Shown here: piece after piece, positions 56,868 through 59,626 of the stretch
Numbering within the stretch: position 1 is the first letter of the stretch
Layout of the letters: each line of letters starts with the position of its first letter
Assembly (NCBI GenBank): GCA_902596065.1
Contig: CACJSL010000004.1
Location: forward strand, 1 to 61,920
Length of the DNA: 61,920 nt
Direction of reading: 5' to 3'
Origin: an uncultured Alphaproteobacteria bacterium
GTDB taxonomy: Bacteria > Pseudomonadota > Alphaproteobacteria > HIMB59 > GCA-002718135
The notes under the pieces: generated by a model
What the model was told of the DNA's origin: nothing
Database searches by the model: none
Seen by the model: only the letters and a program-made list of their open reading frames with translations
Position numbers and translations under genes: made by a program

Positions 56868-57903
56868 CTTAATGAAAATATATAATGATTTTGTATCAAA
56901 TAATTTTATTAGTTATGATGAAGATCAAATTAAAATTTTAAATATTTTTGAGGAAATTTGGAATCAAAATCAAAAAATTAACTTTTTTTTAAACAAAAAA
57001 AAACCTAAAGGCATATATCTTTATGGCCAAGTAGGTATTGGAAAAACTTTTCTAATCAATTTATTTATTAATAACATTGAAAAATCAAAAAAATTTCACT
57101 TTAATCATTTTATGATTAACTTACATGCATTTGTTAATAATCACAGTAAAAAAGATTTTGCCTTAGAAATATATGTAAAAAAACTTTCTCAAAAATATAA
57201 AATTATATTTATTGATGAATTACATGTTTTTAATATAGTAGATGCATTATTATTAAAAAAAATATTCTATTTTTTTCAAAAATATAAAGTTTTTATTGTT
57301 ACCTCTTCAAATTATATTCCCAAAGACCTATATAAAAATGGTTTACAAAGAGAAGATTTTATTCCGTTTATTGAACATATTAAAAATAATTTTAAAGTTT
57401 TACACTTAGAGAGTTTTGAAGATTATAGACGACAAATGCTTAACCAGGCAAAGACTTACTATAGTCCAGTTAATAATAAAACTATTAGTGAATTTAATAA
57501 ACTTTTTGATCGTTTTGTAGATAAGGGAGAAATACATATAAGAAAAATTAAAACTAAAAGCAGAACTATACGTCTAGAAAAATGTACAGCGAATATTGCT
57601 TATTGTGAATTTTCTGAACTTTGTATGGCTAATTTAGCCCACGAAGATTATAAAAATATTGCGAATGAATTTAGTATTTTATTTATTAATAAAGTTCCAG
57701 AATTTTCAGATTCTGAATCTGATCAATGCAGAAGATTTATTAGCTTAATTGATATGTTGTATGAAAAAAAATGTTCAGTAGTGATATTGGCAGAAAAACC
57801 AATAAACAGCTTATGTAATATACAAAAACTAAAAATTGAGTTCAAGCGAACAGCTAGTAGATTATATGAAATGACAATTATAACTTCTGAAAACAAATGG
57901 TAA
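56857..57903 (+). CDS. zapE: Cell division ATPase ZapE (AFG1 family)
   Basis: KGIYLYGQVGIGKT, HFNHFM, DELHV, LYKNGLQR and RTASRLYEM motifs. Confidence 0.92.
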   Translation: MKNNLMKIYNDFVSNNFISYDEDQIKILNIFEEIWNQNQKINFFLNKKKPKGIYLYGQVGIGKTFLINLFINNIEKSKKFHFNHFMINLHAFVNNHSKKDFALEIYVKKLSQKYKIIFIDELHVFNIVDALLLKKIFYFFQKYKVFIVTSSNYIPKDLYKNGLQREDFIPFIEHIKNNFKVLHLESFEDYRRQMLNQAKTYYSPVNNKTISEFNKLFDRFVDKGEIHIRKIKTKSRTIRLEKCTANIAYCEFSELCMANLAHEDYKNIANEFSILFINKVPEFSDSESDQCRRFISLIDMLYEKKCSVVILAEKPINSLCNIQKLKIEFKRTASRLYEMTIITSENKW

Positions 57904-58889
57904 AAAAAGTAATTTATATTTTTAGCTCTTTGATATTTTTTATATTTATCATTTATATAGCTGCTGGTTTTTACTTAGCTAATACTATACTAAAAATTGA
58001 TCCCTCATGCGGATTACATGAAGGTGCTTTACCTAATACATGGTCAACATTAGTAGATCATCATGAATACTCAAATGTTAACAGGAGCATCCTTAGAAAA
58101 AATTTTCCTTTTAAAAATTATCATATTGATGATTGGCAGGCAGTTTATTTTTCTTCTAGAGAAAAAGATATTAAAATAAGTGGATGGTTATTTGACCACC
58201 ATAAAAACCAACCAATTGTAATAATAGTTCATGGATTATTTCCCAATGGCAAATGCAAACCTGAGTCAAATCTTTTAGCAAGCTTATTAATAAAAAATAA
58301 TATTAATGCTCTTACAATTGATTTAAGAAATTATGGAGATAGTACTACTGTTAGTAATTATGAAAATTTAGGATTAAGTGAATATAAAGATGTTTTAGGG
58401 GCTTATGATTTTTTAGTAGAAAATGGATTTAGGGAATCTTCTATTGGCTTACTAGGAATTTCTTTAGGAGGAACCTCAGTTATATTTGCTGGAAAAGAAG
58501 AACCAAACATTAAAGCTATTTGGCTTGATAGTACTTTAGCAGAATTCAAAATGATTTTAAAAGATGAAATTGCTCGCTATGGATTTTCTCATGATTTTGG
58601 GCCATCAGTAAGTTTTGCAGGAAAGTTTTTAACAGGAATTGATCCAACGAAACTATCACCAGCATTTTCTTTAACTAAAACTCAAAATTATTTTTTTACT
58701 CATGGAGATAAGGATGAAAGAGTATTAATTCATCATTTTGATTTTTTTAAAGAATATATAAAAAAGAATAATATCAAAGCAAAATTCTGGCTTGCAAAAG
58801 ACTCATATCATGTTGATGCAATGTTTAAATACCCAGAAGAATATGGAATAAAATTAAAAAATTTTTTTGAAGCACATTTAAATAACTAA
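57897..58889 (+). CDS. Membrane-anchored alpha/beta hydrolase
   Basis: N-terminal TM, IIVHG, DLRNYG.S, nucleophile motif GISLG, HGDKDERV and a C-terminal His. Confidence 0.88.
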   Translation: MVKKVIYIFSSLIFFIFIIYIAAGFYLANTILKIDPSCGLHEGALPNTWSTLVDHHEYSNVNRSILRKNFPFKNYHIDDWQAVYFSSREKDIKISGWLFDHHKNQPIVIIVHGLFPNGKCKPESNLLASLLIKNNINALTIDLRNYGDSTTVSNYENLGLSEYKDVLGAYDFLVENGFRESSIGLLGISLGGTSVIFAGKEEPNIKAIWLDSTLAEFKMILKDEIARYGFSHDFGPSVSFAGKFLTGIDPTKLSPAFSLTKTQNYFFTHGDKDERVLIHHFDFFKEYIKKNNIKAKFWLAKDSYHVDAMFKYPEEYGIKLKNFFEAHLNN

Positions 58890-58890
58890 A

Positions 58891-59038
58891 AGTGCCGGAC
58901 TCGCCTTCACCAGTTTGTACCTTGGCAGACACTTCTCTAGTTTAGACAAAACTCTAATACATCATCCGGCGGGAATGATTGTAAACTGTATCTCGGCGTT
59001 CCTCCGAAGCTAAGAAAACGAGCTTTTTATCCGGCATT
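58891..59038 (-). ncRNA. Candidate stand-alone structured ncRNA (about 148 nt), family unassigned
   Basis: 46% GC island (69/150 by hand count), four long-range helices plus three hairpins, promoter TTGAAT-17-TAATTT directly upstream, and a 3' U-tract. Confidence 0.7.
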
Positions 59039-59041
59039 ACC

Positions 59042-59070
59042 AAATTACTTTCAAACTAGAAATTATTCAA
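59042..59070 (-). promoter_or_regulatory. Sigma70-type promoter of the candidate ncRNA
   Basis: Minus-strand -35 TTGAAT (59070-59065), 17-nt spacer, -10 TAATTT (59047-59042), five nt before the first helix. Confidence 0.55.
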
Positions 59071-59133: not shown

Positions 59134-59154
59134 ATATCCACAGATTTATCCACA
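59134..59154 (+). promoter_or_regulatory. Tandem DnaA boxes
   Basis: ATATCCACA (59134-59142, one mismatch) and TTATCCACA (59146-59154, perfect). Confidence 0.55.
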
Positions 59155-59257
59155 TTAATTACATAAATTGATTATAGTCTAAAAAGGGATTTTTTTTTGA
59201 ATTTCTCTAAAAAAAGAATACTTAAAAGTTAGAATATATATTTTTAATTTTCAATAA

Positions 59258-59626
59258 ATGATCGATAATAGACCTTTATCCCCACATCTAAGTATTCACA
59301 AAAAGGTATTAACTGCTGTCTTTTCTATTTTTCACAGATTAACTGGCATTTTTTTAACATTAGGTTCATTTTTTCTAGTCTTTTGGTTTTTATCAGTTTT
59401 AATTGGAGAAAATTTTTATAATTATTTTCAAATTGTTTCTTCAAATTTAATTTTTAAAGTAATTTTATTTTTTTGGACATTGGCATTTTTTTATCATTTA
59501 TTTAATGGTATTCGCTATTTATTCTGGTCTTTTAGTTTGGGAATGGATTTAAAAACAGTTTACCTATCAGGTTACATAGTTTCATTATTAACGATTATTG
59601 CCACAATCATAGTCTGGTATTTATGA
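59258..59626 (+). CDS. sdhC: Succinate dehydrogenase cytochrome b556 subunit
   Basis: RPLSPHL, SIFHRLTG and HLFNGIR motifs. Confidence 0.96.
   Translation: MIDNRPLSPHLSIHKKVLTAVFSIFHRLTGIFLTLGSFFLVFWFLSVLIGENFYNYFQIVSSNLIFKVILFFWTLAFFYHLFNGIRYLFWSFSLGMDLKTVYLSGYIVSLLTIIATIIVWYL

Follow-up and report, generated by a model that had tools for sequence, protein, structure and literature searches.

A conserved minus-strand RNA gene beside sdhC in HIMB59-type marine bacteria, and its candidate antisense target at the start of marR-lysK

The window analysed here is a 61,920-nucleotide (nt) stretch of contig CACJSL010000004.1 (assembly GCA_902596065.1) from an uncultured alphaproteobacterium of the order HIMB59, family GCA-002718135, and our subject is an RNA gene of about 148 nt on its minus strand, running from about 59035 to 58888. 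An alpha/beta-hydrolase gene (Peptidase_S9/Abhydrolase_1; plus strand, 57897-58889) ends with its stop codon on one side of the RNA gene, and sdhC starts on the other, at 59258 of the plus strand. The original prediction, made from the letters alone, described a G+C-rich island free of open reading frames (ORFs). The composition was right, as 58888-59038 has 45% G+C in a genome of 28.3% overall, but two short ORFs of 35 and 32 amino acids (aa) overlap the island, neither of them conserved. It also proposed a stand-alone, undescribed non-coding RNA transcribed from the minus strand, divergently from sdhCDAB. That proposal is borne out: the conserved promoter, the bias of wobble pairs, covariation, the single copy, the lack of an Rfam match and RNA-library contigs from two studies together identify the stretch as a genuine stand-alone minus-strand RNA gene with its own sigma-70-type promoter. 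The features to which we refer below, all on the minus strand, are as follows.

59065..59070: -35 box TTGAAT, read in the window; TTGAA(T/A) is equally spaced in the homologues shown.
59042..59047: -10 box TAATTT, after a 17-nt spacer and 6 nt before the predicted start, G59035.
58888..59035: RNA gene of about 148 nt; covariance-model match 58888-59038, contigs 58888-59035 (run X7) and 58893-59029 (run X6).
59029..59036: P1 5' strand UGCCGGAU, pairing with 58893-58900, with compensatory changes.
58893..58900: P1 3' strand GUCCGGCA; CUUUU is next at 58892-58888, and the contigs end at 58893 and 58888.
59020..59026: P2 5' strand AAAGCUC, pairing with 58948-58954 and enclosing P3 and P4.
58948..58954: P2 3' strand GAGUUUU, with a CUC/GAG core; variants covary.
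58991..59015: P3 hairpin with the invariant loop UUCGGAGGAAC (59008-58998), its stem kept through U-A/U-G/C-G changes.
58961..58979: P4 hairpin (AUCAUUC/GGAUGAU), loop CCGCC inside an invariant CCCGCCG, with compensatory pairs.
58945..58947: P5 5' strand GUC, pairing with GGC at 58903-58905; all three pairs vary on both sides.
58910..58940: P6 (CUAG/CUGG; 58940-58937 with 58913-58910), an internal loop AGAA/AAA, and P7 (58932-58917).
58923..58938: seed AGAGAAGUGUCUGCCA, an invariant 16-nt block complementary to marR nt +2..+17 at G000:C5:27315-27330 (G000 being the window's genome).

The promoter had been predicted as TTGAAT-17-TAATTT, five nt before P1. In the homologues shown it is kept as TTGAA(T/A)-17-TAnnnT, 5-7 nt ahead of P1, the window's copy spanning 59070-59042. 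At the other end of the gene the closing helix P1 is followed by the U tract CUUUU, which overlaps the hydrolase stop, as the prediction had also pointed out. The predicted wobble bias also holds: the variable pairs of the fold, read on the minus strand, hold 144 G.U cells against 28 A.C cells, which fits the minus strand only.

Nineteen runs recorded as RNA contain a small share of an 801-nt query around the gene; the 20 rows of matching runs come from 16 studies. Fifteen of them give no evidence, and the remaining four (X1, X2, X6 and X7) were compared, all as contigs, which show neither strand nor level directly. Runs X6 and X7, which come from two separate studies, each yielded a contig that spans the RNA gene and leaves the flanking genes uncovered, while X1 (possibly DNA) and X2 cover the flanks too. 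The X6 contig is bordered on either side by 14 unmatched letters, which we take to be sequencing-adapter read-through. In that arrangement the first mate would read the plus strand, a weak pointer to a minus-strand RNA in most stranded libraries. The X7 contig carries 13 unmatched letters past the RNA 3' end that resemble the reverse complement of a relative's P3 loop region and may be fold-back or chimeric complementary DNA.

Nothing in Rfam describes this RNA. At the gathering score Rfam 15 matched only a tRNA in the whole window, in agreement with the prediction that no known family would be found. At E<=10 the RNA itself remained unmatched save for a 17.6-bit chance match to CRISPR-DR46 at its 3' end, and at E<=1 the loci of 24 relatives gave no match. 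The genome's signal recognition particle RNA (G000 C10:6542-6636), RNase P RNA (G000 C17:11225-11575) and two-piece alpha_tmRNA (G000 C15:14490-14782) all lie elsewhere, so these identities were rejected. A tRNA-like reading, suggested by ACCA after P1 on the plus strand, was also rejected: ARAGORN found no tRNA at the locus and the CCA is not kept in genus g8. The RNA does not look like a sponge of the CsrB/RsmZ type, as CsrA (PF02599) was found in 0/5 genomes and an exposed GGA occurs only in the P3 loop (largest genus). Nor is it a repeat, a miniature inverted-repeat transposable element or another mobile element, which the original prediction had named as a possible confounder; the stretch is single-copy in G000 (a 1.06-Mb assembly, 68% complete), the covariance-model search found one full-length copy per genome in 61 genomes, and there were 0 matches in viral contigs. 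Many sequences have an open frame on the plus strand (median 47 codons), but it is shifted by a 1-nt indel between near-identical g8 sequences, and in several genera every frame holds stops; a protein-coding reading was rejected.

We found no description of this RNA in the literature, where supplements in bioRxiv or PDF form might contain relevant tables. One supplementary table of Stav 2019 (PMC6429828) lists 'sRNA-1' and 'PBC-3' of HIMB5, both at other loci, and mentions neither sdhC nor succinate dehydrogenase. The main text of Meyer 2009 (PMC2704228) has no occurrence of sdh, succinate, 6S RNA or sRNA, and passages of a Red Sea differential RNA sequencing paper do not describe it.

The evidence for structure is comparative; folded as a single sequence, the window's RNA does no better than shuffled sequences (z -0.99 for the minus strand, -1.88 for the plus). 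A covariance model was built from five sequences, and alignment of all 100 loci to it left 57 distinct sequences. In these, 90.9% of cells in the proposed helices are paired, against 83.4% after shuffling, with 0/500 shuffles as high and slid controls at 30-45%, and 21 pairs changed on both sides against 11.8 in shuffles. In an independent set of 19 metagenome homologues the corresponding values are 91.3% against 82.8% (0/500 as high; slid controls 31-46%) and 19 against 11.8; both alignments were fitted to the model and are hence biased towards it. The covariation supports a branched fold of seven helices, with P1 to P4 as a core and P5 to P7 as an arm.

The helices differ in how they are supported. 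P1 was already in the original prediction and covaries (59036-59029 with 58900-58893), its variants being GCCGGA/UCCGGC, GUCGGA/UCCGAC and GCUGAG/CUCAGC, and the predicted hairpin AUCAUUC/GGAUGAU survives as the covarying P4. An alignment-free search for the best helix between two regions found the CUC/GAG core of P2 in 53/57 sequences, and two metagenome variants swap P2 for AAUAAUA/UAUUAUU and AAAUAAUG/CGUUAUUU. P6 changes from C-G to U-A and U-G in metagenome variants. P7 (GUGUCU-GCCA-AGGUAC, with tandem G.U pairs) is invariant except where U-A gives way to U-G. RNAalifold re-predicted P1, P3, part of P4, P5, P6 and P7, but not P2. In minimum free energy folds of the 57 sequences P1 appeared 56 times, P4 55, P3, P6 and P7 31-32, P2 23 and P5 13. 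P2 and P5 are thus supported by covariation yet thermodynamically weak.

The other pairings first proposed did not last. The former P2 (CUCGUUUUC/GAAGGCGAG), P3 (CAGUUU/AAACUG) and P4 (GUAUU/GGUAC), like the side hairpins UCGG/CCGA and AGUUU/AAACU, are either confined to this genus or clash with covarying helices. The alternative folds suggested by a second GCCGGAU have no comparative support, as that copy is not conserved and reads CCGCCGUUUGAU in the largest genus.

The RNA was found in one family, in which it is common. BLAST found homologues in 21/24 other genomes of the family and in 0/16 genomes of the sister family. A covariance-model search (R2) placed it in 60/79 family genomes, most misses being incomplete genomes, and in 0/71 sister-family genomes. 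It was not found in 150 other alphaproteobacterial families, each represented by one genome. A two-block sequence pattern hit 81 loci among 185,579 species genomes; of the 80 listed, 78 are full-length by the model, one runs off the end of its contig and one matches by chance. A match in Kapaibacterium (L109), in G+C-rich coding DNA, was rejected as chance. The 78 full-length loci are mostly in records of uncultured marine Alphaproteobacteria, several labelled HIMB59, MarineAlpha5 or Pelagibacteraceae, and the one on a 3.4-kb contig labelled Flavobacteriaceae is probably mis-binned. A pattern scan of metagenomes gave at least 119 matches; the 80 loci fetched comprised 19 true homologues and 61 chance matches in other habitats. 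With 57 distinct genomic and 19 metagenomic sequences aligned, the RNA is a candidate for a new Rfam family.

The order hydrolase, RNA, sdhC-sdhD-sdhA is unchanged in 22/22 loci examined, and the core hairpin loops GGAGGAA and CCGCC are kept in 8/8 family genera examined. Two genera that the search missed, represented by G008 and G010, have a divergent form at this position (with filters off, E 0.003 and 0.0007). Both core loops persist in it, UGGGAGGAAUG in P3 and CCGCCG in P4, while the arm P5-P7 is absent (G010) or replaced (G008). The core is older or broader than the arm.

The arm led to a candidate target. We scanned three conserved segments of the RNA against 1004 crude start regions of G000. 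The P6-P7 segment gave a single outlier at -33.1 kcal/mol, the next best site being at -22.0 and the best of five shuffled queries at -16.6 to -22.0. The outlier is the start codon of a 155-aa ORF of the MarR family (PF01047) on contig C5. Its messenger begins ...ACU AUG GCA GAC ACU UCU CUU..., in which +2..+17 is the exact complement of RNA 58938-58923. Directly after this marR, with a 4-nt overlap, comes lysK (PF01921), the gene of a class I lysyl-tRNA synthetase (LysRS), and this order is kept in G005, G011 and G010. Co-folding of RNA and messenger gave net gains of -14.3 (G000), -16.5 (G011), -6.8 (G005) and -11.2 kcal/mol (G009), the predicted duplex covering +2..+17 or extending further. 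For the loops of P3 and P4, by comparison, the best start-region duplexes were no better than those of shuffled queries, and the exact complement of the P4 loop occurs in the genome only at the RNA gene itself.

Two copies of the palindrome TTGTATACAAA lie ahead of the G000 marR start. At all marR loci (L277 2833-2870 in G000:C5) a TTGACA-like box is separated from the marR start by two tandem palindromes TTGTATACAA(A). All eight genera keep these, even the ones with an armless RNA; they can fold as a hairpin in the 5' untranslated region, and are presumably the MarR operator.

Seed and target are conserved together. The 16-mer was searched with <=2 mismatches in 41 genomes, 25 of them from the family, and 20/25 have both the RNA copy and a second copy (genera g1, g2, g3, g4, g6 and g8), while two, G008 and G010, have neither. 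In the sister family the matches with 2 mismatches fall inside unrelated genes. In 19/19 target sequences read, from six genera, the second copy is at the marR start behind the operator, and nt +1..+17 are identical in 18/19. G016 is the exception: its GAC is changed to GGC, so that a G faces U in the duplex; a pattern match shows the same A to G change in G024, and most g8 RNAs have an A to G change in the seed that likewise sets G opposite U. No true double compensatory change of seed and target occurs among the genomes examined.

This conservation is local. Between the window's genome and four other genera, MarR protein identity is only 42-55%, and in 15 target sequences the 18-nt blocks after the first are only 17-56% invariant. 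In those 15 the first variable base, +18, is the wobble position of a Leu codon and is also the first base outside the duplex. The marR genes of G008 and G010, whose RNAs are without this arm, have the same operator but other first codons (MEKIHKL and MNSNNL) and no motif. When pairing of their RNA regions with their own marR starts was scored, 119 and 183 of 200 shuffled targets did as well.

From these sequence comparisons we propose that the RNA is an Hfq-independent, trans-acting antisense small RNA (sRNA) of about 148 nt that blocks translation of marR, and perhaps of lysK with it, and we put the probability of this at about 0.62. It would be transcribed from its own sigma-70-type promoter, away from sdhC, and end at P1 and the U tract. 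The arm P5-P7 would present the 16 invariant nucleotides, some of them in an internal loop and a tetraloop, the others in a stem that two G.U pairs help to keep weak. Nucleation on the marR messenger through the open loop letters would then open P6 and P7. The resulting duplex of 16 base pairs would cover the start codon and the first five marR codons, block binding of the 30S subunit and so lower the amount of MarR.

The sign and consequence of such pairing in vivo would depend on how lysK is expressed. If lysK is translationally coupled to marR, synthesis of LysRS would drop as well; if it is uncoupled, loss of the autorepressor would raise lysK transcription. In this scheme the 5' strand of P7 is held fixed by the target and its 3' strand keeps the stem weak enough to open, and the two constraints together would explain why P7 is invariant, including its two G.U pairs. 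Neither Hfq nor CsrA turned up in any of five genomes searched (96% and 99% complete in two cases), so pairing must do without them. The core P1-P4 may act as a scaffold or bind a protein.

Several points weigh against this proposal. The RNA's strand and ends rest on contigs, promoter logic and wobble bias rather than on raw reads. Half of the seed is paired within P6/P7 in the free RNA. Two of the 25 family genomes, G001 and G003 (67% and 81% complete), have the RNA copy only, and G004 (80% complete) has only the second copy. One species, G301, has a G to A change in the seed that makes an A.C mismatch with an unchanged target, and two metagenome variants carry the same change. An exact 16-mer match somewhere in so AT-rich a genome was reached by 17/200 shuffled RNAs, and one of >=40% G+C by 5/500. 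Chance matches are, on the face of it, not negligible; the case for the target rests on its position and on co-conservation. The relatives are not independent; the six genera may reflect one origin followed by purifying selection, and the two genera without arm and motif may reflect a single event. Conservation of MADTSL at the protein level could also account for part of the pattern, but would not fix all third positions. Finally, the persistence of an armless core in two genera means that the RNA has at least one further function, outside the antisense model.

In the main rival reading the RNA is a structured housekeeping RNA that binds a protein or the ribosome, as a ribonucleoprotein scaffold or a sponge. 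Its loops GGAGGAA, CCGCC and GCCA would be contacts to protein or rRNA, and the marR match a non-regulatory relic of the arm's origin. Three separate invariant blocks and unvarying stems (P7, most of P3, P6) are typical of ribonucleoproteins, and the core survives armless in G008 and G010. The P4 loop, whose complement is nowhere else in the genome, and the P3 loop found no start-region match that beats shuffles, as noted above. The plus strand at 58922-58945 reads TTG GCA GAC ACT TCT CTA GTT TAG, or (M)ADTSLV and a stop; judged on its letters it resembles what would remain of codons one to six of marR, a hint that an inverted copy of the marR 5' end gave rise to the arm. A relic, however, would not keep marR synonymous sites invariant over six genera, nor would it end exactly at the edge of the duplex, and changes restricted to wobbles are left unexplained. 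Hfq and CsrA, moreover, were not found in any of the five genomes searched. We regard this rival as unlikely, though it is the one to be taken most seriously.

A more elaborate possibility, which we consider improbable, is a riboregulator of two modules. An ancient, invariant core, P1-P4, would sense a small molecule, a protein or uncharged tRNA and gate a grafted antisense arm, making the RNA a trans-acting 'riboswitch-sRNA' that tunes the LysRS operon in a lineage without T-boxes or Hfq. Arms specific to a lineage, such as that of G008, could then retarget the core.

It is very improbable that the RNA is a divergent 6S RNA, which would sequester RNA polymerase as a mimic of the open promoter. 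The role appears unfilled, as the 6S model (RF00013) matches in 0/41 genomes of the order at E<=1, and a conserved, stand-alone RNA that is seen in RNA libraries could fit it. Against this, the model gives no match on the locus even at E<=10, and a consensus fold with two branch points is not the rod with a central bubble that 6S identity entails. The sister family, furthermore, has neither this RNA nor a detectable 6S RNA, so the two distributions are not complementary. A cis element on the plus strand, serving either sdhCDAB as a 5' leader or attenuator or the hydrolase messenger as a 3' element, is suggested by the fixed synteny in 22/22 loci and the slightly better plus-strand fold (z -1.88), but is hardly credible when G.U is five times commoner than A.C in the variable pairs of the minus strand, the conserved promoter points the opposite way, about 220 nt of AT-rich DNA separate the element from sdhC, and the antisense match to marR exists only for a minus-strand transcript.

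The antisense reading gives the RNA a place among known systems. Trans-encoded base-pairing sRNAs that occlude a translation start include MicF acting on ompF, RyhB on sodB, and Spot 42, and Bouvier and colleagues are said to have put forward in 2008 a 'five-codon window' rule for them. The RNA described here is like these in having its own promoter, a terminator-like end and an invariant seed against the start codon and first codons of a distant messenger, and in that seed and target are conserved together. It differs in that no Hfq gene was found, in having a perfect 16-mer seed where theirs have 7-12 nt, and in being more structured and conserved, with a separate core, a MarR-LysRS operon as target and no Rfam match. 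It is a new RNA family of a known kind, the trans-encoded antisense sRNA, for which its structured core is unusual.

Orphan structured RNAs such as Flavo-1, Chlorobi-1 and Bacteroidales-1 have come from comparative genomics and from G+C-rich intergenic regions. Our RNA resembles them, and the SAR11 candidates of PMC2704228 and PMC6429828, in forming a G+C-rich island in an AT-rich streamlined marine genome, with covarying helices and no same-strand gene downstream; unlike them it has no Rfam match, and a target can be named. It is like a T-box leader in being a structured RNA tied to an aminoacyl-tRNA synthetase operon, but T-boxes act in cis and bind uncharged tRNA, whereas this RNA is encoded elsewhere, is predicted to pair with a messenger and has no T-box match in Rfam. 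With 6S RNA it shares a stand-alone, conserved gene of about 150 nt, in a lineage with no detected 6S, and differs in its branched fold and the lack of a model match.

Bacteria of the HIMB59/AEGEAN-169 type are described (PMC10308909) as subclade V of SAR11, the group that is most abundant among marine bacterioplankton. They have small genomes of about 0.9-1.6 Mb, and RNA-based regulation is little known in such small-genome marine bacteria. The proposed target is specific, a MarR repressor with an essential class I lysyl-tRNA synthetase that we read as co-transcribed. If the proposal is true, an Hfq-independent sRNA would control a tRNA-synthetase operon, and would do so from a compact, highly structured scaffold with a conserved core.

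The loci of the divergent forms show further structure. Both G008 (L123, about 979-1250) and G010 (L124, about 2095-2262) add two elements to the fold: on the outside a helix CCAGGAA/UUCCUGG, after which comes a run of U, and on the inside a hairpin with the stem UUAUCCA/UGGAUAA. In G008 the 3' arm shows 89% complementarity (E 0.011), over about 27 nt, to an ORF of the dCMP_cyt_deam_1 family (L283, start about 1490) at its nt +12..+39, and the arm is a possible lineage-specific second seed. A second complementary site sought for G010 gave AT-rich noise only.

The hydrolase gene goes with the RNA in every family locus examined. Used as a query, the window's hydrolase retrieved no counterpart from three sister-family genomes of 94-99% completeness, and the two genes may have come or gone together, as a single block. 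At the corresponding position the sister family carries another G+C-rich element, about 95 nt long, some 170-270 nt upstream of sdhC on the opposite strand (L125 G025:C1:244510-247857; L126). Its closing helix, GGUCG../..CGACC, shows a compensatory change, and its hairpin loop is CCCCGCA. A U.G pair is compatible only with the strand opposite sdhC, where a 192-aa ORF begins about 45 nt downstream of the element. Rfam has no match to this element, which could be a leader or riboswitch candidate.

Two minor features lie between the RNA promoter and sdhC. At 59172-59239 on the plus strand, in DNA of 18% G+C, there is a weak match to Flavo-1 (RF01705), with 16.9 bits (E 0.99) where the gathering score is 42; it is taken as chance. 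At 59134-59154, also on the plus strand, a DnaA-box-like ATATCCACA and the window's only perfect TTATCCACA stand 3 nt apart. A replication origin was rejected here, as there are two boxes only, no skew switch, and most of g8 lacks the pair. Among the loci examined, one or two TGTGGA cores persist in g1, g2, g3, g4, g6 and G021, not in the other two of g8, and the pair may be a regulator site shared by the divergent promoters.

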